Shown: positions 4,396-64,000 of the stretch, in pieces | Layout of the letters: each line of letters starts with the position of its first letter | Numbering within the stretch: position 1 is the first letter of the stretch | Origin: Candidatus Peribacteria bacterium | GTDB taxonomy: Bacteria; Patescibacteriota; Gracilibacteria; Peribacterales; Peribacteraceae | DNA length: 64,000 bases | Direction: 5' to 3' | NCBI GenBank assembly: GCA_041691135.1 | Contig: JBEPVF010000002.1 | Location: forward strand, 1-64,000 | Notes under the pieces: generated by a model | The model's database searches: none | Told to the model about the DNA's origin: nothing | The model's input: the letters and a program-made list of their open reading frames with translations, nothing else | Made by a program: the position numbers and the translations under genes

Positions 4396-4424
4396 TAGAA
4401 GCAGGCGAATGACAGAGGATTTTT

Positions 4425-12448: not shown

Positions 12449-12464
12449 GAACGAACAGTTGTAT

Positions 12465-12497
12465 AAACAGCCTGAATAGCATTTCAGGCTGTTTTTT
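12465..12497 (+). terminator. Intrinsic terminator
   Basis: aaacagcctgaa-tagcat-ttcaggctgttt plus T run. Confidence 0.8.
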
Positions 12498-12587
12498 AAG
12501 CACTGGATTGTGCATCGCATTCATCCATAAGAACTACTAAAGAGCCGGTTTTTGTTGTATACTAGTACGATACACAAAACACCCACC

Positions 12588-14798: not shown

Positions 14799-14808
14799 CA
14801 GAGGCAAT

Positions 14809-15246: not shown

Positions 15247-15251
15247 CTAAT

Positions 15252-44240: not shown

Positions 44241-44262
44241 GGGTCGAGAGTAACAGAAAAAA

Positions 44263-44392
44263 AGGAAGTGACCGAGGTGGCAGAGGTGACAAAGGTGACC
44301 GACGATTGGAACGCAGAAGATGAAAGAGGAGTACTCCTCATAATCCCATCCTCTGCTTCCTCTGCCACCTCGGTCACCTCTGAATCTTCAGT
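44263..44392. repeat. Gene-less inverted 9-nt-period array (GTGACCGAG-type)
   Basis: gtgaccgag gtggcagag gtgacaaag gtgaccgac ... tctgcttcc tctgccacc tcggtcacc tctgaatct. Confidence 0.85.
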
Positions 44393-45515
44393 GGTGATGC
44401 CCTCCAACCGCCACTACCGGCCTCGTCCCCTCTTTCGTCTTCAGAAGCAGTGCAGCGAACCAAGTGGAAATAGGAACAGCAAGGAGCAGCGTTGCGCTGC
44501 CGACGAGCGTGCGAATGACTTCTTCGGCGATCGCTTCGCCGTTGAGGATCACCCATAGCGGAGAATCGGTATCCGTACTGAACAGGAGCAGCAACGGCAA
44601 TGATGCGCCAACGTACGCCAGAGCGAGGGTATTGATCAGAGACGCAATATGTTCGCGACCCACCGACATACCCGACCGAAAGAGCGCATGCCGGGTGAGT
44701 GTCGGATTGGCCTTGCTGATTTCGTCAACCGACGCCGTCTGCGCCGTCGTCACATCGTCGAGCACACCCAGACAACCGATGATGATGCCACCGAGCAACA
44801 GACCGCGGAAGTTGAGATGGGAAAACTGGCCGAGCTGAAGATATAACGTCTGTTCACTGCCCATGCCGAACAGCCGTCCGAGCGAGACAAAGAGAAGCGC
44901 CACAACAATGGCCAGAACGAGCGTGAGTAACGTACTCAGTAACGCTACCGATGTGCGACGATTGAATCCGTGTGCCAGATACAGCGAGCTGGTGGCAATC
45001 AGACACGAGCCGACAATACTGACGAGCAGCGGACTGTAGCCGGCGATAATCAGCGGAATAATAAGCTTGGCCAATAGCAGGATGCTCACGACGAGACCCA
45101 GAATTGACGAGATACCACGCAATCCACCAAGCACGACCGTCAGACCAAGAAAGAGAAGCAAGGCCCAGCCCATTCCCGGCAACCGGTAGCGCTCTTTGGC
45201 CATGTATTCCACGCTGCCATCGGCGCGGGTGAGCGTATCGACAACGAGCATCTCTCCTTTTTTATACAGCAAATCTTCGCGGTCGCTGATGGCATCGTTT
45301 TCCACGCTGATCGACTTGCCGGCATCCGGCCCGCTCGTCAGGCGAATCGTGAGTTTCTGTACGATACTGGTTTCGCCATCTGCCTCCTGCTGTGTTTGGG
45401 TCGCATCAATCACCTGACCGGTTTGGAATTCTTCCTTTGTCGTCTGCGCCCCAACTGAAAGAGGTATCAGCAGAACAGTGCCCAGCAAAACAGATCCAAC
45501 GATGAATCGACGCAT
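44388..45515 (-). CDS. YibE/F family membrane protein
   Basis: LGVLDDVT, GM.VGREHIAS.INTL.LAY.GASLP, EEVIRTLVGS. Confidence 0.9.
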   Translation of the reverse strand: MRRFIVGSVLLGTVLLIPLSVGAQTTKEEFQTGQVIDATQTQQEADGETSIVQKLTIRLTSGPDAGKSISVENDAISDREDLLYKKGEMLVVDTLTRADGSVEYMAKERYRLPGMGWALLLFLGLTVVLGGLRGISSILGLVVSILLLAKLIIPLIIAGYSPLLVSIVGSCLIATSSLYLAHGFNRRTSVALLSTLLTLVLAIVVALLFVSLGRLFGMGSEQTLYLQLGQFSHLNFRGLLLGGIIIGCLGVLDDVTTAQTASVDEISKANPTLTRHALFRSGMSVGREHIASLINTLALAYVGASLPLLLLFSTDTDSPLWVILNGEAIAEEVIRTLVGSATLLLAVPISTWFAALLLKTKEGTRPVVAVGGHHH

Positions 45516-45684
45516 GAAAGCATCATACTCTCCCTTGATCCTGGCACCACATTTCTTGTGCGTTCTGCGAGGTATCAAAACTGCATTTTTGGTGTAAAAG
45601 GAAAAAGGGAGCCTGTCGTTGTTCCTTATTCTTTTTCTCGCCAACTCAGTCGCATCAATCGCTCCGGCATCGTATGATCCAAGT

Positions 45685-47868
45685 ATGTCCGTCGACACAC
45701 TGGAACTCTCCGGCCTGCTGCACACCCATTTCGGGTACGGGGAATTTCGTCCGCTGCAGGAAGACATTATTCAGCATGTGCTGAGCGGCCACGACAGCCT
45801 GGTGCTGATGCCGACCGGCGGCGGTAAATCGCTGTGCTATCAGCTTCCCGCACTGTGCCTGGATGGCCTCACGCTTGTCGTATCACCGCTTATTTCGCTG
45901 ATGAAGGACCAAGTCGACAGCTTGCGCGCCAACGGGATCGCGGCGGCGTTTCTCAATAGTTCGCTCACCATGATTGAGCAGGCGCATATTCAACAAGAGG
46001 CGGCAAACGGTCAGATTAAGATCCTGTACATCGCACCGGAACGACTGGCGGTGCCGGCATTCCAATCTTTCCTGCAAGACGTGACAGTGAGTCTGATCGC
46101 CATCGACGAAGCGCACTGTATTTCGCAATGGGGACATGATTTTCGTCCCGATTACCGGTTGCTCTCGGGTCTGCGAGCGCACTTCGCCGGCGTGCCCATC
46201 ATCGCCCTTACAGCCACGGCCACCGATCGCGTGCGCACGGATATTTGTGAGCAGCTGAGATTGCAAGCGCCCAAGGTTTTCCTGTCGAGTTTCAACCGGC
46301 CGAACCTCACATACCACGTGGCACCGAAGAAAAATTCGTTCGACACATTGCTCACGCTGCTGCGCAAGCACCCGGATGCATCGGCCATCGTGTACTGCTT
46401 TTCGCGCAAGGACACCGAGTCGCTGGCCGCCGATCTGGTGGCCGAAGGATTCAAGGCCTCGCCCTATCATGCCGGACTCAATGCCGACGTACGCCGTGAG
46501 ACACAGGAGAAGTTCATCCGCGACGAAGTCCCGATCATCACCGCCACCATCGCCTTCGGCATGGGTATCGACAAGCCGGACGTGCGTCTGGTGGTGCACA
46601 TGGACATGCCGGCCACGGTGGAAGGCTATTACCAAGAAACGGGACGCGCCGGCCGCGACGGACTGCCCAGCGATTGCGTCCTCTTGTATTCGGCATGGGA
46701 TCGCAAGAAACACGAATTCTTTATCGGAAGAATCACCGACGACGCAGAACGGGCAAATGCGACCCAGAAGCTCGATCGCATCATGGCCTACTGTGATCAT
46801 CGCCGCTGTCGCCGGCAATTCCTACTGACCTATTTTGATGAGGAATGGACAGATGACAATTGCGAAAGTTGCGATCGTTGTCTGGAAAAAACCGAAGCGT
46901 TCGACGCCACCGAAGTGACGCAGAAAATTCTGTCGGGCGTCCTCAAAACCGGCGGGCGCTTCGGCGCGCAGTACGTGTGTTCCGTCCTGCTCGGCCGCAA
47001 TGAGAAGGCGGTGCGCGAGCGCGGCCACGATCAACTGTCCGTCTTCGGCATCGTGCGCGATTTTTCCGACGCGCAGCTCAAGTTGCTCATGGGATCGCTG
47101 ATTGAACAAGGATTGCTGATGCGCACCGAAGGACAGTATCCCGTCCTACAGGTGACTGAATACGGCATGCAATGGATGCAGGAAGGCAAAGCGATTCAAT
47201 TGGCCCGACCAACGACGAACACCGCATTTTCCAAAACGGATGACCGGCAGATTGTATCGTTCGATCAGGGCTTATTCGGTGAGCTGCGCGCGTTGCGCAA
47301 ATCGCTGGCCGACGAGCGGGGCGTACCGCCGTTCATCATCTTCGGCGATCGTACGTTGCAGGAAATGGCGACGTACATTCCACAGTCACGCGAGAGCATG
47401 GCGCGCATCAGCGGCGTGGGAGACAAGAAGCTGCAGGAATTCGGTACGTTGTTCGCGAATGTAATCAGGCAGTACGCAGCGGATCATCAGCTGTCGGAAA
47501 AACCGATGCCCGCCGGCCTGGTACGGCAGGAACGGCGGCGCGAACGTACGGTAGGCCAGAAAGGCTCCACTTACGACGAGACGAAAAAACTTCTGCAGCA
47601 GAAGGTGCCGCTGGCCGAGATCATGCGGCAACGACAGCTCAGTGAAGGAACGATCGTGCAGCATATCGAACGCCTGGTGCAAGCCGACGAAGAACTTGAT
47701 ATTCACTATCTTCGCCCATCCGACGACGACTACCGCACCATCGTCGATGCATTTCACCTGAAAGGAAGCGGCATTTTGTCGCCCGTATTCTCGCATTTCA
47801 ACGGCCGCTACTCCTACGACATGCTGCGTCTGGTTCGCGCACTCCTGGTATCAGATACCTCAGCATGA
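45685..47868 (+). CDS. recQ: ATP-dependent DNA helicase RecQ
   Basis: MPTGGGKSLCYQLP, DEAHCISQWGHDFRP, QETGRAGRDG; RQC, HRDC and C-terminal HTH. Confidence 0.97.
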   Translation: MSVDTLELSGLLHTHFGYGEFRPLQEDIIQHVLSGHDSLVLMPTGGGKSLCYQLPALCLDGLTLVVSPLISLMKDQVDSLRANGIAAAFLNSSLTMIEQAHIQQEAANGQIKILYIAPERLAVPAFQSFLQDVTVSLIAIDEAHCISQWGHDFRPDYRLLSGLRAHFAGVPIIALTATATDRVRTDICEQLRLQAPKVFLSSFNRPNLTYHVAPKKNSFDTLLTLLRKHPDASAIVYCFSRKDTESLAADLVAEGFKASPYHAGLNADVRRETQEKFIRDEVPIITATIAFGMGIDKPDVRLVVHMDMPATVEGYYQETGRAGRDGLPSDCVLLYSAWDRKKHEFFIGRITDDAERANATQKLDRIMAYCDHRRCRRQFLLTYFDEEWTDDNCESCDRCLEKTEAFDATEVTQKILSGVLKTGGRFGAQYVCSVLLGRNEKAVRERGHDQLSVFGIVRDFSDAQLKLLMGSLIEQGLLMRTEGQYPVLQVTEYGMQWMQEGKAIQLARPTTNTAFSKTDDRQIVSFDQGLFGELRALRKSLADERGVPPFIIFGDRTLQEMATYIPQSRESMARISGVGDKKLQEFGTLFANVIRQYAADHQLSEKPMPAGLVRQERRRERTVGQKGSTYDETKKLLQQKVPLAEIMRQRQLSEGTIVQHIERLVQADEELDIHYLRPSDDDYRTIVDAFHLKGSGILSPVFSHFNGRYSYDMLRLVRALLVSDTSA

Positions 47869-47869
47869 A

Positions 47870-47959
47870 TTAACCGGCCAGAAACATGAAGAGTGCGGCA
47901 ATGACCGCAAAGATGCCGAATGGCCCGCTGAACGAAGTTCGATGTCGATACACGTACAT
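47870..47959 (-). CDS. Possible 29-aa membrane peptide
   Basis: MYVYRHRTSFSGPFGIFAVIAALFMFLAG with a pyrimidine-rich leader. Confidence 0.3.
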   Translation of the reverse strand: MYVYRHRTSFSGPFGIFAVIAALFMFLAG

Positions 47960-48041
47960 ACAAAAGGAGAAGGGATACCTCCTATAACGAACAACCTCAC
48001 TCTGGCTTACGGATTGGAGATGACAATGTTTTAGAAACGAT

Positions 48042-48791
48042 CTACAACTCGATTTTCGAGAACAGGTAACTGCCGAGCGCCAGGAATAAAATCGTGAGCA
48101 CGACAAGGATGCCGCCATCGATGAATATGCCGAAATGACTCTGCCCGAGCAACGCAGCCCGGAGTCCGTCGATGCCGTAACTGAGCGGATCGAGTTTGGC
48201 GATAAACAACAACGTGGGCGGAGCCGTATCCAGCGGGAACAGTGCGCCGGACAAGAAGAATAACGGCATGACGACGAAGTTCATGATCAGCTGGAAGCCC
48301 TGCATGTCCTGCAATTTCGAGGCGATTGCCGTACCGAGCGCCGTGAAGAGCAGCGAGATTAGGAACATAAAAATGATCGCTACTGGCACCATCGCCCAAT
48401 TCTCTGGACGAAATCCGGCGATGAGCGCGATGAGGAACACGATGCCTCCCTGCAGAACCGCAACCGTCGCGCCGCCCAGCGTCCGGCCCAGCATGATGTT
48501 CCAGCGGGAAATGGGAGCGACCAGCATTTCCTTGAGGAAACCGAACTGGCGGTCCCAGATGATTTCGATGCCCGAGAAAATCGCCGTAAACAGAATTGAC
48601 ATCGAGATGATGCCCGGTGCCAGGAACTGCAGGTAGTTACCGCCACCCGCCCGCTCGTAAATGGGTCCCATGCCGAAACCAAGCGCGAACAAGAACAACA
48701 GCGGCTGGCCAAGAGAGCCGACAATTCGCGCACGCGACCGGCCATAGCGCTTGAGTTGCCGGAGCCACAAAATGTAGAGAGTATTCAGCAT
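48042..48791 (-). CDS. ABC-2 type transporter permease
   Basis: FLAPGI, DRQFGFLKEMLVAP, FLSGALFP. Confidence 0.92.
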   Translation of the reverse strand: MLNTLYILWLRQLKRYGRSRARIVGSLGQPLLFLFALGFGMGPIYERAGGGNYLQFLAPGIISMSILFTAIFSGIEIIWDRQFGFLKEMLVAPISRWNIMLGRTLGGATVAVLQGGIVFLIALIAGFRPENWAMVPVAIIFMFLISLLFTALGTAIASKLQDMQGFQLIMNFVVMPLFFLSGALFPLDTAPPTLLFIAKLDPLSYGIDGLRAALLGQSHFGIFIDGGILVVLTILFLALGSYLFSKIEL

Positions 48792-48797
48792 AGAGAA

Positions 48798-49610
48798 TCA
48801 GGAGCGGCGTCCCCACATGCGGCTCATCGTCCGCATATGATCGGTGGCGCTGACTTCTTCGGGACGAATGGCTTTGCCGGTAAGGGTGAGGAATGCGTCT
48901 TCGAGTGACTGCGCATTCGTTTCTTGTTTAAGCGATGCGGGCGTTCCTTGAGCGATGATCTGTCCGTGATCAATGATGGCAACCCGATCGGCAACGCGAT
49001 CCGCTTCTTCCATATAGTGCGTGGTGAAGAAGACGGTAATCCCCTCTTCTTTATTCAGTTTTTTGATGTAGTCCCAAATGTGATTGCGCGTCTGCGGATC
49101 GAGACCGATGGTCGGCTCATCGAGGAAAAAGATTTTCGGATGGTGCAGCAAACCGCGCGCGATCTCGAGTCGGCGCTTCATACCGCCCGAAAATTGCTTC
49201 ACCAGATCGTCGCGTCGGTCATCGAGTTCCACGAACTTGAGCATTTCATCGATGCGCTTGCGCCGCGTGGCCTTGTCGACGCCGTACAAAACGCCATGGA
49301 ATTCCAAATTCTCCCACGCCGTCAGTTCGTCATCGGAACTGGGATCCTGAAACACGATGCCGAACGAACGCCGGGCGCCGGCTTGATCATGCACCGGATC
49401 ATGGCCGTCGAGTTGCATCGTTCCACTGGACGGATGCAACAGCGTCGTGAGCATTTTGATCGTCGTCGTTTTGCCGGCGCCATTGGGCCCCAGAAACGCG
49501 AAGATTTCACCACGCTGCACCGAAAATGACACATCATTCACGGCGGTCAGTTTTCCAAACTGGCGTACCAGATGGTCGACATGGATGATGGGATCAGAAG
49601 CAGCGGACAC
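48798..49610 (-). CDS. ABC transporter ATP-binding protein (DrrA-like)
   Basis: GPNGAGKTT, FSGGMKRRLEIARG, LDEPT.GLDPQ; GTG start 6 nt after TACACT. Confidence 0.92.
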   Translation of the reverse strand: MSAASDPIIHVDHLVRQFGKLTAVNDVSFSVQRGEIFAFLGPNGAGKTTTIKMLTTLLHPSSGTMQLDGHDPVHDQAGARRSFGIVFQDPSSDDELTAWENLEFHGVLYGVDKATRRKRIDEMLKFVELDDRRDDLVKQFSGGMKRRLEIARGLLHHPKIFFLDEPTIGLDPQTRNHIWDYIKKLNKEEGITVFFTTHYMEEADRVADRVAIIDHGQIIAQGTPASLKQETNAQSLEDAFLTLTGKAIRPEEVSATDHMRTMSRMWGRRS

Positions 49611-49713: not shown

Positions 49714-50211
49714 ATGAAGCACACTCCCCTGATCATCTCGTTGAGTATGTCGCTCCTACTCCTGACTGCCTGTGGCTCATCGAACACCAATGTCACCCCT
49801 GCAACATCGGACACAGCCGCAAACCCGCCTCTGACCAATACGGCAAATCCTCCGCCGACCAACAACGCACCCCTCACGCCCGGCGCAACAGTGAACGCCT
49901 TTTACGCCGCATGGCTGACATATTCCGGTAACCCACTCACGGACCACATCTACAGTGTAAGTCCGTACATTACCGCATCGCTTAGACAATCACTGGATGC
50001 CCAAGCGCAATCACCATCAGGCCTTGATCCAGTCCTCTGCGCGCAGACCAAACCATCCGCGTTGACCACCTCGCTCGTCTCCGGAACGGACGGCGGCCTC
50101 GATAGCATAGACGTCACCGAAATTTTCGGCGCCTCCACCACCGTCGTACGAGTCGGCGGAGCATTGGAAGGCGACGTGTGGAAGATCAATACGATTGAGT
50201 GCGCGAAGTAA
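49714..50211 (+). CDS. Putative lipoprotein
   Basis: LLLTAC lipobox, Pro/Thr/Asn linker, DPVLCAQ...WKI..IEC. Confidence 0.75.
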   Translation: MKHTPLIISLSMSLLLLTACGSSNTNVTPATSDTAANPPLTNTANPPPTNNAPLTPGATVNAFYAAWLTYSGNPLTDHIYSVSPYITASLRQSLDAQAQSPSGLDPVLCAQTKPSALTTSLVSGTDGGLDSIDVTEIFGASTTVVRVGGALEGDVWKINTIECAK

Positions 50212-50332
50212 GATTCTGTTTCGTATTTTCGCATCAAATAGATCTAAATTTGAGCTGCGTTGTAGCAGGTTTTGTCGGTGGAACTGATGAGGACTTTGCA
50301 GTGGGGGCATTTCATAATAGAAATAGAAAAAA

Positions 50333-50722
50333 TTACTTAAGAGGTAATTCGGGGAAAACTTTAAGTAAATCTGCCACGTACTTTTGAAGTTCTTCATCAC
50401 CTATATAACCAAATTCACCACCTCTATTGAGTTCGTTTGATTCATACATGGACAACCATGAAATAAATGCATCACATTCATTTGCAGATTTAGGTGAAAG
50501 AGCAAGATAATCTAAAGAAAGAGAATCGGTATTTACGAAAATATCTCTCTTTATTTTTTTTAAATCTGTCCCAGTAATTTTACCATCGATATGTTGTTTC
50601 AGTTGATCCTTAAATAATTGAAGATCGCTAGTTAATTTTTTTTCGAAATAAATTTTTTGTTCATTAAGGAGACTTCCCTCAAGATATTTTTTTAGCGCCA
50701 AATCATCATAATTATTAATCAT
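50333..50722 (-). CDS. Putative immunity protein
   Basis: Small AT-rich ORF overlapping the toxin stop by 4 nt (ATGA). Confidence 0.65.
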   Translation of the reverse strand: MINNYDDLALKKYLEGSLLNEQKIYFEKKLTSDLQLFKDQLKQHIDGKITGTDLKKIKRDIFVNTDSLSLDYLALSPKSANECDAFISWLSMYESNELNRGGEFGYIGDEELQKYVADLLKVFPELPLK

Positions 50723-53700
50723 GATTGTTTTTTGAAAACAGTTACTGTGATAATTCTACCAGTATATCCATCTACAACTACTCTTAAATTTTTGACAGTA
50801 GAAGTCCCATTTTTTCTATAAAACGAAAAATTTGAAATCTCAAATCTATATCTCAACTCATCTGTGGTAGTATCTATAGACTTTACTCCATTTTTCAAGA
50901 CATCTTCCACAAAAGATGGATAAACACCATCGTCTTTCATTGAAAGAATCGCATGTTTTGAATATTGGTAATTACCTATTGTCACTTCATTTGTTGAATA
51001 GTTTGTAATTTTTTTAGCAATGGTTGAACGAACATCCTCGATAGTATCAACTTCCACAGCTAGGCTTTCTACCGCACCTTTACCCGCTTTAGGAACCGTA
51101 GACATTTCATCTTTAATCAGTACTTCTGCCGCATCTTTCCCTCCTGTTTTTAAAGCCGCAGCAATCTTAGTAATAAAAGGAATGGCAGAAGCTTCACCTT
51201 TTGTAAGAACAACAGCCAAAGTTTTAACAACTATCGGACTCAAAACTTCCGCAGTTGCAACACTTATAAGAAGTTGACTTGTATTTTCAGGTGTCATTAG
51301 TTTCACACCAGCTACAAAACTCTGCATGCTCGAATAGAGTGCAAACTCCGCAAAATGAGCTGTACGCTCTACTGCTGAAAGTTTGTCGTTATTCACTGCC
51401 TGCCTCTCTTTGTCCATTCTAGTTTGCAGGAATGTAATCATATTATTTAATGTTTTGTTCACTGGATCAAAAATATCGGTCTGCCAACTGTTTGGCATAG
51501 TGACAATTACATCAATCAAACGTTTACCAACTTCATACGGCAGGCTTGAAATGCCCAAAGTTGATGACAACTGGATGGCTGCTTGAACTCCAATAATGGC
51601 GGACGTTGGACTCGATTCAGCACATTTATTCAGTAGGTCTTGCTGCGACTTATATTGATTTACTGCGTTAGTATAACCCAAAGGAGCTGCTTGATTATCT
51701 TCTAAGCTATATGTCTTTCCCGCATTCATAACAATCTTGAGATCCAACGATTTCTCGGGCCCTCCAATATTCAGCCCACTTCCCGCTACGGCCGCACGGC
51801 TATTGATGCCCTGTTTCGCCAACATCGATCGTAGATCGAGTGACGCATATTGCGGATCAAAATCTTGTTGTCCCGCCATCGGATACACCACATTCATATG
51901 CATTTCAGCAGTCATTGTCCCACCGACTTTTCCGACTTGGCCGACTGAATCGCCAGCAGCTATCTGGCGTCCCAAAATATCTGGATTGATCGATTGAAGA
52001 TGAACGAACTCCACAAAGAATACGATTGTGTCTTTCGAAACTGGATCTGGAATTTCGTGTCGCATAACCACCCTACCTTCGGCTTCATCAATATCGACGA
52101 CGATGCCGTCGAGCATGGCACGCACTGTCTTGCCTTTGTCGACATTGAGCCCGCCTTGCAGATTTATATCAACCGCATTGCTCTCAATTCCCACATGCCC
52201 TGGCGATCCCTCTTGAATGAACCATGTGCCATCAGCTTTATCCACTGGCAAATGACCCTGAAGTGCAGCCACGATAAGCGCCTGAATCCGTCCATTTTCG
52301 CTCGCCACTTGCTCGATTGAATCCGGTCCTGTTTCGGCCTTTACCAATGAAGCCACCAACTTTGGCGTCTCCACCACTGTCTCCAGCGGCAGGTTCATCA
52401 GTCGCGCATACAGGGCGCGTTGCTTCTCCTGCGTATCGGCCATCACCAGATCCAAGGCGAGTTGGCGCAATTCGGCGTTATCGGTGTAGCGGCCGATCTT
52501 GTCGTACAGGCGTGCTGTATTGATCTGTTGCTCGCGTGTGACGGGCGTCACTATATCTTTCATCACCAAGTTGCCATCTTTATCCACCACGCGGAGCTGC
52601 TTTGGCTGCGGCTGTGTAGTGCGACTTGTGTAGAGGAACGGCTGACCGGATGCCGGGACCACTTCGATGCTCACGCTGTCGCCAATCTGGCCGATGGTCA
52701 CAATTGCCCTGAGCGCTTGTTTTTGCATGCCACTCATCACGCCAGTGAATGTCTTTTGAACCGGATCGCTGGCCGTACCTGTGGGTCCGACGTGGACGCG
52801 CACCATCACGGACGTACCTTGCAGGCCGTCGTTTTTGATCGAGAACAACGCACCGAGTGTGGTACCGGCAACCGCGGCGACCGGACGCGTGCTCACCATT
52901 GCGGGCACATCCGTCCAGCCTTCCTGACCACCCGACGAAGCGATCTGCCACTGCAGAAAATCGGCCGATAATTTGGATGCGTCTGACGGCATCACATCGG
53001 CTTCGCTGGGGCCTTGGGCAGTGAACGTTGGCATCTCGATCGGCGCTTTGCCGTTCATGCCCACTACCAAGTGCCGCGGCGCGCCCGGGAAAATGACAAC
53101 AGTCTGCGCTGTGAGCTGGCGATACCATTCTTTCGGCAACGGCTGCAAATCGCCGCTCATCGTATTTTGATTCACGTAATACAGCTGATTGATGTTGACT
53201 GATCCGCTGCCGCGCATGTTCACCCGCAACAGCTGGTACTGCGACGGATCCGGATTTTCGACGCCTTCAAGCAAACTGCCGTTGACCCACACATCTTGTC
53301 CGCCTGTACGATACAGCACGCCTTTTTTACGACCGGATTCGATGTAGTTGTAGTCGCCTTGTTCCCACTGTGGAGCACTGACAATGCCTACATCGCGGCT
53401 TGTTTCGGGACTCAGCACCGCAAAAGGTGCTGCGATTTGCGTGCCGTTGCTTTCGAGCGACAGACCGCCGACAAACAGCGCCCCTGATTTCTGACTGTGT
53501 GTGAACACAACTCCCGACAGACCCGCCGGCTGCTTCAGATCGAACACGCCACTCGACGGAATCGCGACCGATGATATTTCTTTGCCACCGCAATACACAT
53601 GCGCGGTGATGACATCGCCGGCACGGTCCGATGCGATGCGGCCCTGCACACGCGTGACGAGCGTTTGCGTAGTGGCAAAATCCAACGTGGCCGCCGATCC

Positions 53701-55767
53701 TTCCATGCGCTGCACGTCGGCGATATTGCTCCACGTACCGGCAGGTGTGATCGGTCGCGTATCGATACGCTCGATGCCGTAGGCGGCGCCCGGATCGGTG
53801 TACACATCAATGCGCGTGATATTGGCATCGATGTGCACCAATCCTGATCCGTCCACCGGAATGAGTCGATTGTTACCGCTGCTGTCGAGTGCGTATACAC
53901 GCGCCGTTCCCTGATTGCTCAGTCGTGTCACCGATACGGCAGACACGTACCGCGCACCGGTCCAGAACATCGAGATACGTCCTTCACCTTTCTTGGTCGT
54001 CTTGAAAACGCCATGGTCGTAGCCTGTTTCGGTCGAGATCACCGCACCACCCTGCTCGGCCAGAAAGCGATACGGCGCGTAGCTGGAGTACGCAAAGTCG
54101 CGTATGCCGTTGTCAGCTTCCACCGTCACGGTTCCGAATCCGGGTATCTGCACTGTCCGACTCATATCGCTCGTTACCTGATTCGGCGCCAATCCAATGG
54201 ATTTTTCGAGCGCGGGCAGCGCGGCTGCCGACGTATTGATCGTGCCGAGTGCCCGGGCGGCAGCGGAACCCGTCACATGCTGCTCCACTGCATCGGAGGT
54301 GAGTGTGCCGCGGAGCGCAGAGAGCGATAGAGAGCCGCCGAGATGATTCAGCGGTTGGGATAGCAGGCGCTGTGATGCACTGCCCGATACCGGACCGGCA
54401 AGCGTGACTGTCTCGTACCGGTCGACATCCGCTTCCAGAGACTCGAGCACTTGTTCCTGTTGCAGTACCGTTTCGTATTTCACCGTGAGCGATCCCTGCA
54501 CCGAAGCGAGCACATCATGATCTTTGGGTACAGCCTTGAAGAATGCGGTGTTCGTTGTTTCAAGATCGCCAGTCGCCGTCCGCATCATCATTAATGCGGT
54601 GCGCGCCGGTGTTCCGGTTGCGTAGCGGTTCAACATGCCATCGGATGTGTGCACCTTGGCACGCACCAACAGTGCGGCGATATCGTTCTGCAGAGATGCC
54701 AGCGCCAACCCGATCACCTGGTCCTGCTCGGAAGAAGCGGGTACCGGCACATCCGCCGCCGGTACCGCGCCCCATAGTCTCTGCGGTACGGTAAGCGTGA
54801 AGAGTTTGCCCGTCTGATCACCGCCGACCGCGCCTATGAGTAGGTGATTTTTAGGCGAGGGGTGGATGACTGACGCGAACTGCGGCGCCTGAAGCGTTTC
54901 GGGCTGTTGCTTCATCGGACTCTGCCCCATCGTCGTTGCATCAAAAAGGGTGATTTTGCCCTCGCGATCGGTGACATATAGGACATCGCCGATTGGCGAA
55001 AAAGTGACATCATTGATCTGCGCACCGGGGAGCGGTTGCACGACGCAGGCGCCGCTCTGTACGTTGATGACGCCGACATTCCCTACCTGATCGCCATACA
55101 CTATGAACTTGCCGCGCGGATCGACTGCGAACGAGACGACATGCTGTTGAACGGAGAAGCTCTGGCTGGCACCGGTGCCCTTGTCATAGACATTGATCGT
55201 CCGGTCGAGATAGGAAGCAACTTTCTTGCCATCGGGGAAGAAATACACGCCGTCTCCCGCTGAGGCAGTGACAGTCTGGCTCCCCGTGTCGAGGTCGAGC
55301 AGGAGAACCTGAGAACTGGCCAAGGCGAAGGCGACGGTCTTGCCATCCGGAGAAACTTCCATGCGTGCGCCCCAGTCGGGCAGGGAGAATTGTTTGAGCT
55401 GCTTACCGGAAACGGCATCCCATACGCGGCAAGTGCCGTCCTGAGCAAAGGAGATAATTTTGGTACCGGTAGGATCGTAGCTGCAGCGCCAGACTTGGGC
55501 AGTGTGGCCAGAGAGAGTGGTAAGAGGAGCGCCGGTTTTCCCATCGCGAATAATGATCGTATTCTGACCATAGGTAGTGGTAGCCAAATGCTGACCATCG
55601 GGACTGAGCGCAAGATCGACGAAGGATTCGGGCCCACGGTTGATATCCGCGTCATCCTGGGGTGTGAGATGCGGAATGGCAGCCAGCGTCGCATCAAAGG
55701 AGGCCAAGGAAGGCAGCTGTCTGTCCTCTAAGTACTCGACGCGTGGACCAGTAGAAAAACGAGGCAT
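50719..55767 (-). CDS. Polymorphic-toxin-like protein: LEDR motif, WD40 propeller, M23-like domain, C-terminal DUF4258/BECR-like RNase tip
   Basis: VEYLEDRQLPS; LSGHTAQV...DGTCRVWD; VRAMLDG.V...FVHL...GDSVGQVG; YSKHAI.SM...GV....VEDVLKNG...LRVVVD...GRIITV. Confidence 0.8.
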   Translation of the reverse strand: MPRFSTGPRVEYLEDRQLPSLASFDATLAAIPHLTPQDDADINRGPESFVDLALSPDGQHLATTTYGQNTIIIRDGKTGAPLTTLSGHTAQVWRCSYDPTGTKIISFAQDGTCRVWDAVSGKQLKQFSLPDWGARMEVSPDGKTVAFALASSQVLLLDLDTGSQTVTASAGDGVYFFPDGKKVASYLDRTINVYDKGTGASQSFSVQQHVVSFAVDPRGKFIVYGDQVGNVGVINVQSGACVVQPLPGAQINDVTFSPIGDVLYVTDREGKITLFDATTMGQSPMKQQPETLQAPQFASVIHPSPKNHLLIGAVGGDQTGKLFTLTVPQRLWGAVPAADVPVPASSEQDQVIGLALASLQNDIAALLVRAKVHTSDGMLNRYATGTPARTALMMMRTATGDLETTNTAFFKAVPKDHDVLASVQGSLTVKYETVLQQEQVLESLEADVDRYETVTLAGPVSGSASQRLLSQPLNHLGGSLSLSALRGTLTSDAVEQHVTGSAAARALGTINTSAAALPALEKSIGLAPNQVTSDMSRTVQIPGFGTVTVEADNGIRDFAYSSYAPYRFLAEQGGAVISTETGYDHGVFKTTKKGEGRISMFWTGARYVSAVSVTRLSNQGTARVYALDSSGNNRLIPVDGSGLVHIDANITRIDVYTDPGAAYGIERIDTRPITPAGTWSNIADVQRMEGSAATLDFATTQTLVTRVQGRIASDRAGDVITAHVYCGGKEISSVAIPSSGVFDLKQPAGLSGVVFTHSQKSGALFVGGLSLESNGTQIAAPFAVLSPETSRDVGIVSAPQWEQGDYNYIESGRKKGVLYRTGGQDVWVNGSLLEGVENPDPSQYQLLRVNMRGSGSVNINQLYYVNQNTMSGDLQPLPKEWYRQLTAQTVVIFPGAPRHLVVGMNGKAPIEMPTFTAQGPSEADVMPSDASKLSADFLQWQIASSGGQEGWTDVPAMVSTRPVAAVAGTTLGALFSIKNDGLQGTSVMVRVHVGPTGTASDPVQKTFTGVMSGMQKQALRAIVTIGQIGDSVSIEVVPASGQPFLYTSRTTQPQPKQLRVVDKDGNLVMKDIVTPVTREQQINTARLYDKIGRYTDNAELRQLALDLVMADTQEKQRALYARLMNLPLETVVETPKLVASLVKAETGPDSIEQVASENGRIQALIVAALQGHLPVDKADGTWFIQEGSPGHVGIESNAVDINLQGGLNVDKGKTVRAMLDGIVVDIDEAEGRVVMRHEIPDPVSKDTIVFFVEFVHLQSINPDILGRQIAAGDSVGQVGKVGGTMTAEMHMNVVYPMAGQQDFDPQYASLDLRSMLAKQGINSRAAVAGSGLNIGGPEKSLDLKIVMNAGKTYSLEDNQAAPLGYTNAVNQYKSQQDLLNKCAESSPTSAIIGVQAAIQLSSTLGISSLPYEVGKRLIDVIVTMPNSWQTDIFDPVNKTLNNMITFLQTRMDKERQAVNNDKLSAVERTAHFAEFALYSSMQSFVAGVKLMTPENTSQLLISVATAEVLSPIVVKTLAVVLTKGEASAIPFITKIAAALKTGGKDAAEVLIKDEMSTVPKAGKGAVESLAVEVDTIEDVRSTIAKKITNYSTNEVTIGNYQYSKHAILSMKDDGVYPSFVEDVLKNGVKSIDTTTDELRYRFEISNFSFYRKNGTSTVKNLRVVVDGYTGRIITVTVFKKQS

Positions 55768-55958
55768 GGAGGGAGGTAAAACTGAACAACACCATGAAAC
55801 CAGACATCCGACCAGAGAGTGAGGCATTCTAGGAAAACCAAAAAGCTGATAACCGACTTTTTGGCTTTAAAAAGCCATGATTGGCGTTCTATGCCACCGT
55901 AGAACACCCCGCACTCACCCTCAAAAATACTCCTTCATCTGCCTTCTCCACTGCTTTA

Positions 55959-57521: not shown

Positions 57522-59801
57522 CTACACACGTAAAGCTGTCGGCAAATGAATGACCTTTGGTATGGATGAAGTCGACCTGAGAGGAAGACGGTCCTTGGCC
57601 CTGGCGACGAGGATGAAGAGACTATGATCAAAAGTATGGACACCCTTGCCGCCCCTGTCGCGTATATACGAATCAATATAATGATCGATTGCTTCCGGAT
57701 TGTTCCTCGCATTCTCTGGCAACAGATACATCATCATTTCGCGCAGGGCCGACAAACCTTCGTTCGTGTTTGTCGTGAGCGTAACAGTGGGGCGTGTCAC
57801 TTGTGTAGAATAGCCTTGGCGCTCAAGATGCTCGACATACCGTTGTGCAGAAGAATTTACTTCGCTACCTGCAAGAGTTTTTCGCAGGTGTGCCCGTGAT
57901 CCCGGCTCGCCTACCAAATCATTCAAGACACTGATCGATATGCCGTCTCTGTTCAAGTTGTCCTGAGTCCACTCCAGAACCTCTTTGTCTGTATCTCTGT
58001 CTCTCTCTTTAAGGAAATACAGTACGTGGCTCAGCAAAGCAACATCGGGTTGGGGCTCGAATTCCAAAGAATCAATAAGTTCGCCGATATTTCCGAATAC
58101 AGTTTCGAACGTCGGTGATTTCTTCTTTTCGAGCTGATGGTAACGCGTCATGCTCGCTTCCACTGCCACCGTATAACTAAACAGGTCTTCCAGGTATTCA
58201 GCGGTATGCCCATCCCATGCACCAATATCCAATAAGCGGCGCTCCGAAGGCGGCTTTGGACAGCGCTCAAAATGGGTCTCGATGATGGCACGAAGATTCG
58301 GATACAACAATCGATGCCTTTCAATTCTGCGCAGGGTTCCCGGATGAACGTACTGCCTCTGTACTTCTTTTTTATTACTCACGTGCGAAACTAAATGCTG
58401 TAATTTTTTAATAGAAGCCGGCGGGTCTTTGGCCAAGGAAATCGATGCTCTTTGAATGGAGCGAGCGGCACTGTGTTTGGTGTCTTCAAAAAATCGTAGG
58501 AAGAACGTCCCTAATTCATCAGCATCAGGATAGGTCCCAAGAAAATTGATCAACTGCGCGGCCTGAGCTTCACTTAACATTTTTATACATTCAGGTTCGT
58601 TCTCTATCTCCTTCTCAACATCAGTACCAAACAACCTGTCGGCCAGGGACTCTCCGCTCAACCGTTTATCTATGTTCTTTCCATCGCCTTCCGTATGCGT
58701 ACGAGCGACAATTTCTGCATCAATATCAAACTCTGCATTATAGCTTGGAAAAGGATCCAGCTGTGTCTGGACAGGCCTGTGCAAGATCTCAGACGACATG
58801 CCGCTCAATGGTAAATGACGAGAAACAGCCCCTTCATTCTCTGCAATCAGATCTGGAAGCACGGCACGGCGACGCGACGCCGATACAGTCTGCCTCAACT
58901 GCACATCCGACGGGGCAATCGAGGTATGCAACACCGAGCTTGGAACATCCGCTGTTCCATTTGTTACTTTTTGGTTTTGGTTCCGTTCGACGAGACCCCT
59001 GCCGTTGCCGCCGGGGTGATGGCCGTTTGCCTCAAATTCCGACGACGATTCGTCTGGCATCGGTTGCTCATCGTGTTCAATTTCCACTGGCAATACTCCA
59101 ATAGCTTCTTTACCAGCTCTCTCTTCCGCCAATAATAATTCCAACTCCACTGTGTCCGTAAGATGGGCACCAAAATCTCCGGAGGTATAAGTAGCGACGA
59201 CAAGATCAAAAGCATCTTCTACGTCTTGTGGCTGGATCTTGATTCCCTGCCCCTGCATACTTGCCACAAGCGCCGTGAGCTCACTGTCAAAAAGTTCACG
59301 AATTTCCTGCTTGGCTTGTACGCCAAAACCAATCATTTTTTCTTTGGTCGCAATGGAATCCTGTAAAGCGGGTGTCGCCAGCTCCTTCGCCAGTGGCATA
59401 AGTAAATCATCCACTCTGCGCGCCACATCCAAACACACCATCAATCGGGCGATATTTTCCGGAGATGCATCGCGTGCAATAGTCCGAATTTCTCCCTCGC
59501 GCGCTTTGAGCTGGAGTGCCGTGCGGATAGCAATCCGGATGGACGGCGAGGCGTGATCGGCAATATCCCATTCAACGGGAAATAAATTGACCGGCAGGTG
59601 AGTCGTTTCTTGCATCAAACAAGAAACCCGGTCTGTCATTTCGCTCTTATCCGTATTCCCGAGCAGAACCGTCTTTAATGACTCGAGAAGCTTGGCACGG
59701 TTTTCCCGAGCTGCACCGAGCCACGTGGCATACATTTCCATCTTTACAGACCTGTCATCTGCAGTGGATGGGCCGACCGATGACGAGAGGGATTCGGACA
59801 T
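57522..59801 (-). CDS. Large protein with C-terminal class I SAM-dependent methyltransferase domain
   Basis: LLDIGAWDG, AVEAS, LLSHVLYF motifs; unknown N-terminal ~500 aa. Confidence 0.75.
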   Translation of the reverse strand: MSESLSSSVGPSTADDRSVKMEMYATWLGAARENRAKLLESLKTVLLGNTDKSEMTDRVSCLMQETTHLPVNLFPVEWDIADHASPSIRIAIRTALQLKAREGEIRTIARDASPENIARLMVCLDVARRVDDLLMPLAKELATPALQDSIATKEKMIGFGVQAKQEIRELFDSELTALVASMQGQGIKIQPQDVEDAFDLVVATYTSGDFGAHLTDTVELELLLAEERAGKEAIGVLPVEIEHDEQPMPDESSSEFEANGHHPGGNGRGLVERNQNQKVTNGTADVPSSVLHTSIAPSDVQLRQTVSASRRRAVLPDLIAENEGAVSRHLPLSGMSSEILHRPVQTQLDPFPSYNAEFDIDAEIVARTHTEGDGKNIDKRLSGESLADRLFGTDVEKEIENEPECIKMLSEAQAAQLINFLGTYPDADELGTFFLRFFEDTKHSAARSIQRASISLAKDPPASIKKLQHLVSHVSNKKEVQRQYVHPGTLRRIERHRLLYPNLRAIIETHFERCPKPPSERRLLDIGAWDGHTAEYLEDLFSYTVAVEASMTRYHQLEKKKSPTFETVFGNIGELIDSLEFEPQPDVALLSHVLYFLKERDRDTDKEVLEWTQDNLNRDGISISVLNDLVGEPGSRAHLRKTLAGSEVNSSAQRYVEHLERQGYSTQVTRPTVTLTTNTNEGLSALREMMMYLLPENARNNPEAIDHYIDSYIRDRGGKGVHTFDHSLFILVARAKDRLPLRSTSSIPKVIHLPTALRV

Positions 59802-59900
59802 GAATGAGAAACGCAATGTACATCTTCTTGCCTCCCCGACAAGTAGCAACTGTCTCCGTAGCCTGCCTTTGGCAGGAGTAAGCAATAATTATCCACAGTC

Positions 59901-60943: not shown

Positions 60944-63559
60944 TCAAATATTTGCTGACTTCGACTGAACTTTGGCCCATGCCGCTGATAAATGTTCGAT
61001 AGCCTCATCAATTTCCCGAAGCAGAACAGGCCCGATATTCTCAATTAATCCCCGTTCCTGGGAAGTCAGGGAAAGATAGTCTCCCACCGTATAGATAGCC
61101 TCGCTTTCAAAAGTATTGATCGCCCGGAGAGGAACAGCTAATTCGGTGAGGGCAGTGTCGTGGAATGGATGATGGTAGCCACTTGCCAATGTACGAACTG
61201 TCGACAAGGTATTCTGTTCATCTTCATCCGCGCGATCTCTTTCATACATTCCAAGAGCATAGCGAAGCGGGTGATCGGATATTTGTAATTTCGCCAATGC
61301 TTTAGCTTCGATCTGTCTCACGCGTTCACGTGTCACTTTCAAAACTTTCGCACATTCCTCCAGAGTGTTCGCTCTTCCATAGAGGGCAGGATCGAAGGTG
61401 AGCTGAAGTGGTGGCACCTTGGTTGGATCTATATGTTCGGTAAAACCCAGACCATAGCGCAGGTTAAGAACAAGACGTTCGCGACTGGGTAATGACCGAA
61501 GCGCGAGTTGCATTGCGTCGCGCCGCTGTATGTCATATGCGTTGTCCTCAGGTGCGCATTCTCTCCCCTCAGCAATAAAATACATTCTCGCCGTTTCACC
61601 TTCTCCCAACGGATTATCCAAACTTATGAGCGACCTATCCATATCGAGCGCATGACTGACGTCAGCCTCTGCGAGATCCAAGGCGTCTGCGATTTGCTTG
61701 CAACTCGGCTTTTCAAAATATGTTTGCTGATAATCACCGATGTATCGGTGAATATGTATCAGCCTTTCGTTTATGTGAACGGGTAAACGGATTTCTCGCT
61801 TGTCGTTTGCAATGGACCGCGTGATGCGCTGCCTGATCCAGTGCGTCGCATACGTAGAAAATTTCAATCCACGGCTAGGATCCCACAAATCAACCGCACG
61901 CATTGCACCCAGTATTCCCTCTTTGATCACGTCCATGAAGGGAATGCCTTTGTTTCTATAGTTTTTTGCAATCGATACGCACAGCCTGGTATTTGCCAAT
62001 ACAAGTTTTTGCCGGCGTGTATTCAGGCCTGCATGCAAGGCACCTATCTCTTCGAGTATCCCATCGAATGCACTCGGTGTTTCTCCCGTCTCCCGAACAA
62101 GTTCCTGCCGAAGCGAGTCTCGATTCTCGTCAGTCGCTTTGGCAAGTCGAGACTGCAAATCCACACCAGACTGCAAAAGCTCAGAGAATATTTCATCACG
62201 AAAAGGCATTACTGTGAGCATCCGTTCCAGCACGGCAATGCCTTCGGGCGAAGGTGTTTCGGTTGTTTCATCCGATTGTCTGTCCTCCACCTCCAGGGCA
62301 TTGAGCGTATTGAGTATGAGCATCTTATTGACCGATGGGCTTAGGCCAGGGGCAAACTGCGTCTCTGTTGTGTGTTTCGGTACATTGAAATATGTGGTGA
62401 TCCGAAGGCTTTCTTCGGAATCAAACAATGACCGGTATATTGCAACAGCCTTTGTTTGGAAGAAATGATGTGACAGCATTGTATGTCGCAAATCCGTTCG
62501 CAAGTCCACGATCAAATACCCCAAGTCAGACTCTTGTTGTTTGGAAAGCAAAGGAGCCCTGGTGACACTGGCAAAGAAATGATTGATGTCATCCAAAATG
62601 ATTTTTCGCGTTTTCGCATCACTATCTTCCACTTCCCGAAGTTGCAGCAGCTCTGTCGGCTGAATTTCCCAATCTGCCGCATCCGCCGATATATCGTCTT
62701 CAAGCGTATCTGTGGTCCCCACATCTATGACGTCAATGGTTTCGGCCGTTTCAATATGCAAGTCGCGCGCGCCAATATGATAGCGTTTAACAAACAGCTG
62801 AAATGCCGCACGGCGCTCGACCAGTTTCGCAAGTACCGTGCAAAGCGCAGCCGATACTTCCGGCGAAAAGATATCACCATTGATGCGTTGAAATACATTT
62901 GCAGTAAGACGAGCTTCTTTCAACACTTCGGCAATGATTGCTTCTTCCTGATCTGCTTTTTCAGGCTGTCTGTCCTGCTGCAAATTGGATGCCGGGGTCT
63001 GCTGCGGCACTTGCTTTCTCCACTCGCTGACCGCCGGACCGTACAATTTAAAACGCTCAAGAAAGGCTTTTTTCGCGCCTGACACCTTGCGGATCGCGTC
63101 AAGCATACGAAGAATGTCTGCTTTCTGCTCAGGGTTGTAGATTCCCACATGTCTTGCAAGGGTGTCGGGAGTGAAGTGCGTCGAGGTTTCGAACGCTTTA
63201 TGGATGGCGTCATCGAGTGTAATACCCTTCGGCAAAAGCTGTGGGGATAGTTCCTGTGCAACAGGCACCTCATGTTCATCGGAGGACGTGGAAGAACTGC
63301 CAGAGGCACGTTGCTGCATGACAGATTCAATGTCAGCACGTATCTGTAAAAACGCCTGCCATGCCTGCCGTGGCATCAATACCGGTTTTTTTCCGGACTG
63401 CAAAAGAGCGTGAATTTTATCGAGCGTAATATCCTGTTGGACCCATGGATCGCGCATGTGCACCCTCTTTATTGCGTTAACAGCATCTTCGACGCGCTCA
63501 GCATCTATCGTGCCGATTGATGGCAAAACACCTAGTTTCATGAAAAGGTATTGATTCAA
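60944..63559 (-). CDS. Divergent RpoD-like sigma70 with C-terminal RNAP alpha-CTD-like domain
   Basis: PLLSKQQE (1.2), NTRLCVSIAKNY...KFSTYATHWIRQ (2), TLEECAKVLKVTRERVRQIEAKAL (4), LTELAVPLRAINTFESEAIYTVGD...NIG (alpha-CTD). Confidence 0.88.
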   Translation of the reverse strand: MNQYLFMKLGVLPSIGTIDAERVEDAVNAIKRVHMRDPWVQQDITLDKIHALLQSGKKPVLMPRQAWQAFLQIRADIESVMQQRASGSSSTSSDEHEVPVAQELSPQLLPKGITLDDAIHKAFETSTHFTPDTLARHVGIYNPEQKADILRMLDAIRKVSGAKKAFLERFKLYGPAVSEWRKQVPQQTPASNLQQDRQPEKADQEEAIIAEVLKEARLTANVFQRINGDIFSPEVSAALCTVLAKLVERRAAFQLFVKRYHIGARDLHIETAETIDVIDVGTTDTLEDDISADAADWEIQPTELLQLREVEDSDAKTRKIILDDINHFFASVTRAPLLSKQQESDLGYLIVDLRTDLRHTMLSHHFFQTKAVAIYRSLFDSEESLRITTYFNVPKHTTETQFAPGLSPSVNKMLILNTLNALEVEDRQSDETTETPSPEGIAVLERMLTVMPFRDEIFSELLQSGVDLQSRLAKATDENRDSLRQELVRETGETPSAFDGILEEIGALHAGLNTRRQKLVLANTRLCVSIAKNYRNKGIPFMDVIKEGILGAMRAVDLWDPSRGLKFSTYATHWIRQRITRSIANDKREIRLPVHINERLIHIHRYIGDYQQTYFEKPSCKQIADALDLAEADVSHALDMDRSLISLDNPLGEGETARMYFIAEGRECAPEDNAYDIQRRDAMQLALRSLPSRERLVLNLRYGLGFTEHIDPTKVPPLQLTFDPALYGRANTLEECAKVLKVTRERVRQIEAKALAKLQISDHPLRYALGMYERDRADEDEQNTLSTVRTLASGYHHPFHDTALTELAVPLRAINTFESEAIYTVGDYLSLTSQERGLIENIGPVLLREIDEAIEHLSAAWAKVQSKSANI

Positions 63560-63713
63560 TCATAAGACCTCTCTTTGTCCAAACAATTCACTGCCGCTGT
63601 GGGAGTTCACAAGGAGACAATGCACGTAATGTCTTGTTTTAGTTTTCAATCGTCCATGTAGAGTCGGCACAGTAAAAGCAGACAGCCTATCGTAGTGCGA
63701 TCATGAACATCGT

Positions 63714-64000
63714 TTATTTTCTCATTGCTATGGATAATTTTCTTTCAGCTGCCTGTTGGATTATTCTGATGCCTTCACGCGACATACCCATGGCTTCACC
63801 CAACTCTCGAAGTGTTTTTGGTTTACCGGTATCAAGACCATATCGCTCTGTAACGACGTCTCTTTCCGTGTCACTCAACAAATCCAGCTGCTCAAATAAC
63901 CGGTTCATATTTTCTCGAGATATACAGCTGTCTTCCGTTCCCGGCGCGCTATCCTCCACTTCATCTATTGGAAGCAAGTCCGACGAAGGATCAGTTATCA
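63714..64000 (-). CDS. C-terminus (region 4) of a second sigma70-family factor, truncated by window edge
   Basis: LSDTERDVV.ERYGL...KTLRELGEAMGMSREGIR.IQ..AE.KL. Confidence 0.85.
   Translation of the reverse strand, partial: ITDPSSDLLPIDEVEDSAPGTEDSCISRENMNRLFEQLDLLSDTERDVVTERYGLDTGKPKTLRELGEAMGMSREGIRIIQQAAERKLSIAMRK

Follow-up and report, generated by a model that had tools for sequence, protein, structure and literature searches.

Why should a bacterial sigma factor end in what looks like a domain of the RNA polymerase alpha subunit, and what could such a domain do at a promoter? In the textbook scheme, sigma reads the -10 and -35 elements and the two C-terminal domains of the alpha subunits (alpha-CTDs) reach upstream DNA and activators separately. 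The question is raised by one gene of the genome G000 (1.74 Mb in 35 contigs, 92% complete), which lies near the end of the stretch analysed here, namely positions 1 to 64,000 of contig C2 (64,000 nucleotides, hereafter the window). The gene is a single intact frame with a TTG start (Table 1), and its product of 871 amino acids (aa) is called the sigma-CTD protein below; the database copy starts at M7 and comprises 865 aa. An earlier note, made from the letters of this DNA, had described the product as sigma regions followed by an alpha-CTD-like domain, and this description was borne out by the Pfam matches to regions 2 to 4, by searches of the PDB, by a profile of related tails and by a fold model. 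Judged from its sequence, the protein appears to work like a sigma-70-family factor that carries a member of the alpha-CTD superfamily; it is not an orthologue of RpoD, and it is not an alpha subunit.

Membership of the sigma-70 family is indicated by Pfam, which called regions 2, 3 and 4 above their cut-offs (Sigma70_r2, E 1e-15; r3, E 1.1e-7; r4, E 1.8e-14), and by TIGR02937 (107 bits against a cut-off of 42.9). Relatives were sought by a full HMMER scan with the whole protein, which covered 1.84 billion representatives and from which the best 150 proteins, including the query itself, were considered. Among the 149 best non-self representatives, 19 align through the tail, to query residue 853-863, and these 19 together with the sigma-CTD protein supply the 20 family tails referred to below; a profile built from the tails added P0140, P0145 and P0203, so that the architecture of sigma plus tail is found in 22 of the 149. 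The family includes P0133 (1118 aa), which has an apparent second, N-terminal sigma module ahead of its sigma-CTD part, and P0139, in which two alpha-CTD-like domains stand in tandem (502-579 and 581-640).

The tail was then compared with known domains, alone and as a family. A search for RNA_pol_A_CTD, which the earlier note had proposed, was successful for the family, with matches at E<=0.01 in 14 of the 20 proteins (best 8.3e-12), and fell short for the single tail, whose match scored 18.4 bits (E 0.0019), or 23.3 bits in a scan of the whole genome, against a gathering score of 23.8. When residues 765-871 were searched alone against the PDB, all 28 sequences returned at E<=10 were RNA polymerase alpha subunits with the CTD in register (best E 0.0036), and the profile of 20 tails retrieved solved alpha-CTDs at E 5e-14, alpha subunits making up 55 of the 60 among the matches listed; the next family, at 1.8e-5, was DNA ligase, matched in its helix-hairpin-helix region. 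An AlphaFold2 model of residues 783-866, computed from an alignment of the 20 tails only, had a mean predicted local distance difference test score (pLDDT) of 87.1, and Foldseek returned RNA polymerase or alpha-CTD entries for it down to rank 47, among them 3n97, which contains an alpha-CTD and sigma region 4 on UP/-35 DNA. Isolated alpha-CTD chains were superposed on the tail model with a root-mean-square deviation of 1.0-1.9 A over 54-65 columns and a target TM score of 0.68-0.88. By sequence profile and predicted fold, the tail is a true, divergent alpha-CTD homologue. It is not especially close to the RpoA tails of f1, the GTDB family to which G000 belongs, since six f1 RpoA tails scored E 3e-7 to 5.5e-6 and the best RpoA tails of other families 1e-13 to 1e-15.

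A trivial explanation would be an artefact, in the form of an assembly chimera or of a paralogue in decay whose tail resembles a helix-hairpin-helix by chance. The sub-threshold Pfam score of the tail alone could be quoted for it, as could the fact that the stretch is held by one DNA sequencing run, possibly that of the source sample (no RNA run was listed); the frame is intact, however, alpha-CTD is matched strongly both by profile and by fold, and 22 representative clusters and several independent genomes share the architecture, so that the fusion is a family trait and not an accident of assembly. With the distribution within the class added to the family-wide architecture, the profile match and the fold match, the artefact is effectively refuted, and we regard its probability as close to nil.

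Is the protein, then, the housekeeping sigma of its organism? The genome contains eight sigma-70-family region-2 matches, and a canonical RpoD is encoded on C5. A maximum-likelihood tree was built from the sigma core by a quick search (71 rows, 287 columns). In it, the C5 RpoD falls with the RpoDs of relatives in a clade with a support value of 100, and a branch with a value of 97 divides 44 housekeeping-type rows (CPR, that is candidate phyla radiation, Planctomycetota, Omnitrophota and others) from 27 rows comprising 22 sigma-CTD proteins, including that of the window, 4 other representatives and the neighbouring 706-aa sigma. The maximum-likelihood tree thus keeps the protein outside the clade of CPR RpoDs, a grouping that the earlier note had said would count against its reading; the approximately unbiased (AU) test, however, did not reject a tree in which it was forced beside that clade (delta lnL 19.1, p 0.215). 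Given this result and the long branch, the origin of the protein is not settled by the tree alone, and it is the shared hairpin insertion and the tail that place it in the sigma-CTD family. The score of the RpoD equivalog was not reached (best model, 216 bits against 555). As the earlier note had supposed, the protein is not the housekeeping sigma, because a separate canonical RpoD is present on C5 and only 5 of 401 sampled genomes of the class carry the type; it is an accessory, group-1/2-like factor of the sigma-70 family. In the same tree, a 701-aa second sigma of a same-family genome (L017, G024:C40) was placed among Planctomycete-type RpoDs and not in the CPR RpoD clade.

The distribution of the type was surveyed in genomes of the phylum and of the class. 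With the tail profile, RpoA-sized frames in 401 sampled genomes of the phylum scored up to 56.5 bits, and scores >85 bits were reached only in G000 and G042; the 335/401 tally of this sample includes the unpublished genome G191, on which no specific claim rests. In 401 sampled genomes of the class, matches at E<=1e-16 were confined to five, all of family f1; of the 64 f1 genomes besides G000, 4 matched, and of the 336 genomes in other families none did. In G591, which is among the five, the match is a free-standing frame of 99 aa (L046 1426-1725 (+) = L050 9926-10225), which is alpha-CTD-like and canonical in appearance, with the motif NFGEKS and a tail-profile score of 69 bits. The sigma-CTD type is encoded in the independent genomes G042, G529 and G585 and in three records titled Candidatus Peregrinibacteria or Candidatus Peribacteria, in one of which the sigma sequence is identical to that of an f1 genome. 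NCBI places Candidatus Peregrinibacteria in the candidate phylum Peregrinibacteriota, and a passage of PMC6744442 discusses Peregrinibacteria among CPR lineages. The data support a CPR lineage for this uncultivated bacterium, with Candidatus Peregrinibacteria and Peribacteria as its nearest named relatives.

The family is small and patchily distributed. In 40 relatives, no match was found outside residues 445-783 of the protein, and the tail alone, searched against 41 genomes (G000 and the 40 relatives), matched only itself, five other matches at E 0.02-0.13 being judged noise. A database search with the tail profile at longer lengths gave at least 8 proteins, in a setting where candidates were crowded out and the count is weak evidence on family size. 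A match in a Myxococcota record (L054) proved to be a false positive, the peptide lying in an alternative frame over pyruvate-dehydrogenase-type genes, and none of the 110 matches obtained with one short pattern in JGI metagenome contigs was confirmed. The sampled genomes of relatives measure 0.4-2.1 Mb, and those of the same genus 1.0-1.4 Mb, smaller than G000. Four same-genus genomes have DNA matches to 44014-49534 of the window and to C2 from 67532 on, and only small pieces were matched in the roughly 17.6 kb between about 49.9 and 67.5 kb, where the GC content goes down to 0.399 (50001-52000). The sigma-CTD gene is thus an accessory gene in strain-specific DNA.

What the tail would do depends on its residues. 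These were numbered by alignment of the tail to E. coli, the Arg of VRSANCL being taken as 265, and conservation was counted over the 20 family tails (Table 1). The '265 determinant' for DNA binding by alpha-CTD, which we take to comprise R265, N268, G296, K298 and S299, is kept in the tail only in part: R812, N815 and G843 are present, and the K298 and S299 equivalents are V and L. The reading that we favour is that of an alternative sigma whose tethered alpha-CTD would contact upstream promoter DNA beside region 4, and we hold belief and doubt in it to be evenly balanced; a built-in, UP-element-like DNA contact is plausible from the residues that are kept. The protein would bind core polymerase and recognise -10 and -35 elements in the usual manner of sigmas; its alpha-CTD would sit immediately upstream of region 4 and touch the minor groove or the backbone, much as happens when a free alpha-CTD occupies the proximal subsite of an UP element, and the outcome would be a third promoter contact independent of activators, effectively a third alpha-CTD in the holoenzyme. 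Since the domain is attached about 30 residues past region 4, it could hardly lie elsewhere than on the DNA immediately before the -35 element, or close to it, which is the place where a free alpha-CTD meets the proximal UP subsite alongside region 4, in the geometry of 3n97.

The sigma core was compared, in an alignment, with six sigmas, namely RpoDs of Planctomycetota and Omnitrophota, the organism's own RpoD and the neighbouring sigma. The recognition motifs of regions 2.4 and 4.2 are intact, including the motif that reads -35, and the protein extends about 100 residues beyond the end of the RpoDs. The region 1.2 of the earlier note was recovered by this alignment, as a region-1.2-like segment, and by Sigma70_r1_2 matches in 10 of the 20 family members, and was not called by Pfam in the sigma-CTD protein itself, where neither r1_1 nor r1_2 was found. 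The change of the region 2.3 dyad from WW to HW was likewise seen, TYATHWIRQ standing where the RpoDs have TYATWWIRQ, and H is found at the first dyad position in 3 of the 20 family members. The insertion noted in region 4 amounts to 21 residues (706-726) between LRYGLG and TLEE, opposite a gap in all six comparison sigmas, and was modelled in the whole protein as a beta-hairpin with strands 706-710 and 718-722 (block pLDDT 83-93). The loop that bears it is 23-29 residues long in 20 of the 23 rows that have a CTD (10, 13 and 17 in the other three) and 2-7 residues long in 43 of 48 rows with no detected tail; of the five exceptional rows in the latter group, three stand on the sigma-CTD side of the tree. 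The insertion and the alpha-CTD tail really do co-occur across the family, an association that is descriptive and not a test, because the relatives are not independent.

Past region 4, HPLR aligns with the C-terminal motif of RpoDs (PSR, PIR or HPR in the compared sigmas), and its Arg is kept in the closer family members; we take its counterpart in E. coli sigma-70 to be HPSR, with the Arg as R603, an alpha-CTD contact. The whole-protein model (mean pLDDT 65.3) has a helix at 767-777, values <50 at 778-786, block means of 47-63 over 781-800 and block values of 85-89 in the tail, and the low confidence of the linker beyond its short helix fits a flexible tether to the tail. A complex prediction for region 4 (672-772) and the tail scored 0.00 against a mark of 0.32 and was not used as evidence either way.

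Several observations weigh against an upstream DNA contact made by such a sigma. The equivalents of Lys297, Lys298 and Ser299 are P, V and L in the sigma-CTD protein, and in none of the 20 tails is the Lys298 position occupied by K, and 7 of them have E at the Lys297 position; of the 51 residues of the tail that were aligned, 3 are K/R and 9 D/E, compared with 7 and 9 in the E. coli stretch. The altered dyad (W433H), at the fork junction, could mean altered or impaired promoter melting. A promoter-consensus scan of the locus gave 5 sites where 6.5 were expected, and thus no excess. To these are added the Pfam score of the tail alone and the non-rejection by the AU test, both given above.

The same residues bear on two other roles for the tail. 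As alpha-CTD is the usual target of activators, the tail could be a protein-docking module that recruits a transcription factor or the products of neighbouring genes (the 267-aa and 787-aa proteins), or a decoy for regulators that bind alpha-CTD. The loss of basic residues from the second helix-hairpin-helix and the net acidic character of the tail are consistent with docking, and so is the genomic and physical association with a methyltransferase-like domain: a gene for it is adjacent to, or within two genes of, the sigma-CTD gene in 3 of 6 loci (G000, G585 and G529), and three sigma-CTD proteins carry the domain as a fusion, P0148 at the C-terminal and P0169 and P0216 at the N-terminal end. 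The most conserved residues of the tail, however, are the DNA-contact residues Arg265 and Asn268, and the partner is still putative; we consider docking rather unlikely. Alternatively, the tail might be an autoinhibitory or switch domain that folds onto the DNA-binding surfaces of its own sigma, as region 1.1 does, and is released when core polymerase is bound or a signal arrives. An acidic tail on a flexible linker would suit this role, as would a STAS gene and a second sigma at the locus, but the intramolecular contact is purely hypothetical and the conservation of Arg265 and Asn268 is left unexplained, which makes autoinhibition an improbable role in our estimation.

In the part of the protein ahead of region 2, two claims of the earlier note were examined. 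The roughly 300-aa N-terminus, called novel in the note, came out as an orphan: residues 1-330 have no paralogue within the genome, found only themselves among 6805 scored candidates in a word search, gave sub-threshold noise in Pfam, and in the PDB drew two designed proteins, neither of them with a matched stretch. In the ESM Atlas, the best score (0.79) was to a Mor/helix-turn-helix-type cluster and is a lead only. The Planctomycete-like character claimed for the non-conserved region of about 150 aa survived in part. The best matches of the protein outside its family are Planctomycetota and Omnitrophota RpoDs (50-63% of the query covered), and the organism's own RpoD has no such region in the alignment. 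When residues 366-505 were searched alone against 280 fetched proteins, however, nothing was found by phmmer with default filters, the best E was 0.025 with --max, and the best BLASTP value was 0.09, so there is no significant Planctomycete-specific signal in that segment; the core tree, moreover, puts the protein in the sigma-CTD family and not among Planctomycete RpoDs.

The features of the gene and the conserved positions of the tail are collected in Table 1. A terminator-like hairpin follows the stop codon, and in the promoter and terminator consensus scan of the region the site counts were not above those of shuffled sequences.

Table 1. Parts of the sigma-CTD gene, with window positions, and tail residues equivalent to E. 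coli alpha-CTD positions.
Feature	Position	Strand	Basis or remark
Sigma-CTD whole gene	60944..63559	(-)	One open frame, 871 aa + stop codon
Start signal	63557..63573	(-)	Shine-Dalgarno-like GAGAGG 63573-63568, 8-nt spacer, TTG 63559-63557
Alternative ATG start, M7	63541	(-)	Start of database copy
Orphan N-terminal region, residues 1-320	62600..63559	(-)	Predicted helical with disordered linkers, low confidence (block mean pLDDT 28-69)
Region-1.2-like segment, residues 322-352	62504..62596	(-)	Alignment to RpoD region 1.2; pLDDT 80-92; Pfam r1_2 uncalled
Non-conserved region between regions 1.2 and 2.1, residues 353-510	62030..62503	(-)	RpoD alignment
Sigma region 2, residues 519-588	61796..62005	(-)	Pfam
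H573-W574 replacing W-W dyad, region 2.3	61838..61843	(-)	Alignment
Sigma region 3, residues 599-672	61544..61765	(-)	Pfam
Sigma region 4, residues 686-759, -35-reading motif VTRERVRQIEAKAL	61283..61504	(-)	Pfam and alignment
Region-4 insertion, 21 aa, residues 706-726, predicted beta-hairpin	61382..61444	(-)	Alignment and model
HPLR motif, residues 763-766	61262..61273	(-)	Alignment to RpoD C-terminal motif
Acidic linker, residues 768-797	61169..61258	(-)	Short predicted helix 767-777, then low-confidence stretch
Alpha-CTD-like domain	60947..61168	(-)	Pfam match 798-855; last helix to ~870
Terminator-like hairpin, 11-bp stem, 31 nt past stop codon	60888..60913	(-)	Consensus scan only
Arg265 equivalent, R812			R or K in 18/20 tails
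Asn268 equivalent, N815			N in 18/20 tails; most conserved tail column
Gly296 equivalent, G843			G in 13/20 tails
Asp259 equivalent, E806			Acidic in 15/20 tails

Upstream of the gene lies that of the 706-aa, group-1-like sigma with regions 1.2, 2, 3 and 4 (C2:63714-65834 (-), of which 63714-64000 is in the window), and beyond this second sigma a STAS protein is encoded (G000:C2:66017-66376 (-) = L027 2017-2376), which is anti-sigma-antagonist-like and under NCBIfam cut-offs; an adjoining open reading frame of 147 aa had no match. Downstream are a 267-aa protein with no matches and the 787-aa protein (57522-59885 (-)), which carries a weak class-I methyltransferase signature and whose individual matches were all weak and non-significant (DREV/Methyltransf_23; FkbM, E 0.082; METTL9-type, E 0.18; mad2, 24.6 bits). 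Over 205 residues, the N-termini of the 706-aa sigma (6-208) and of the 787-aa protein (39-241) share 35% identity. The methyltransferase-like domain, with its DIGAWDG motif, recurs with sigmas in this genome, at the downstream gene just described, at G000:C2:184752-186635 (+), where it is fused to an extracytoplasmic function (ECF) sigma, and at G000:C2:228946-229635. Methyltransferase Pfam families were matched in 1 of the 20 family proteins. In other genomes, a relative adjoins the sigma-CTD gene in G585 and lies one gene away in G529, and none was seen in the G042 or L051 loci, L052 being too short to tell; in G585 the sigma-CTD protein and this neighbour have a short N-terminal stretch in common (35% over 62 residues, E 2e-5). 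Since relatives of the domain are fused to sigma-CTD proteins elsewhere, joint regulation is suggested, and the context of a second sigma, a STAS protein and a methyltransferase-like gene points to a regulated sigma module and not to a defence system or a phage. Two observations concern other large proteins: a frame at 50719-55827 (-) encodes 1702 aa, with WD40 repeats at the N-terminal end and, at residues 1228-1314, a weak match to Peptidase_M23, and in the G042 locus (L049) the sigma-CTD gene is flanked by two paralogues of about 1400 aa, 89% identical (1788-6041 (-) and 11925-16121 (-)).

This context also bears on the suggestion, raised in the earlier note, that the protein is an effector sent into a host bacterium, where it would redirect the host RNA polymerase. 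What can be said for it is circumstantial, namely the strain-specific accessory DNA, the long branch and the lifestyle commonly attributed to CPR bacteria. The suggestion fared badly: neither a signal nor an apparatus for secretion or delivery was seen next to the gene, the neighbours are of the sigma-regulation type, and a search of viral contigs with one short pattern gave 21 matches, none of which was confirmed as a relative. We regard an effector as highly improbable.

No published description of a sigma/alpha-CTD fusion was found by full-text searches, and supplementary tables of sigma-factor surveys could list it; public databases already hold proteins with both Pfam labels precomputed, the fusion itself being unnamed. 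If the proposed upstream contact is correct, a holoenzyme with three alpha-CTD-type modules would result, and a natural sigma with an alpha-CTD homologue next to region 4 would hard-wire a contact that is otherwise made separately. The arrangement bears directly on the share that the alpha-CTD, region 4 and DNA assembly has in promoter strength and specificity, on the diversity of promoter recognition in genome-reduced CPR bacteria with few regulators, and on the reuse of polymerase-subunit domains. The housekeeping RpoD of f1 (G000:C5:6126-7679 (-); L020, L022, L023, L025 and L026) also has an appended domain after region 4, a zinc-ribbon-like CxxC...CxxC tail of about 45 aa seen in 6 of 6 f1 RpoDs examined and in none of the 5 that represent other families of the class, so that the addition of modules to sigma ends may be lineage-wide. 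A wider view, which we hold to be possible but doubtful, is that sigma-CTD proteins form a distinct class of sigmas that bring their own alpha-CTD and read a three-part promoter (-10, -35 and upstream) with no activator, and that modules at the end of sigma stand in, throughout the lineage, for a large repertoire of transcription factors, in conjunction with the methyltransferase-like partner.

Among known systems, MzaA, the sigma of the MZA anti-phage system, scored near the RpoD models (215.5 bits and 113 bits). A defence role of this kind was rejected, because the match is confined to the generic core of sigma (profile positions 433-657 of 683) and lies well under the cut-off of 800, and no other Mza proteins (the partners MzaB-E) were found among 8 scanned proteins of the locus. 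With the group 1/2 sigmas RpoD/SigA, represented by the Planctomycetota and Omnitrophota RpoDs, the protein has in common a region-1.2-like segment, a non-conserved region, regions 2-4 and an intact -35 motif, at 30-43% identity over 30-63% of the query; it differs in its orphan 320-aa N-terminus, the H of the dyad, the 21-aa region-4 hairpin, the appended alpha-CTD and an undetected region 1.1, and its type is patchy and not essential-looking, with the 97-support branch between the two. Compared with the alpha subunit, the tail follows sigma region 4 instead of the alpha N-terminal (dimerisation) domain, and the true RpoA of the organism is encoded on C14. Compared with alpha-CTD itself (PF03118, 3n97), the tail agrees in sequence profile, in fold and in the equivalents of Arg265, Asn268, Asn294 and Gly296, whereas those of Lys297, Lys298 and Ser299 are lost and the domain is more acidic. 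A parallel in design is offered by ECF41, a group of ECF sigmas that reportedly carry C-terminal SnoaL-like regulatory domains: both have an extra domain after region 4, and in the present case the sigma is group-1-like and the appended domain is that of a polymerase subunit.

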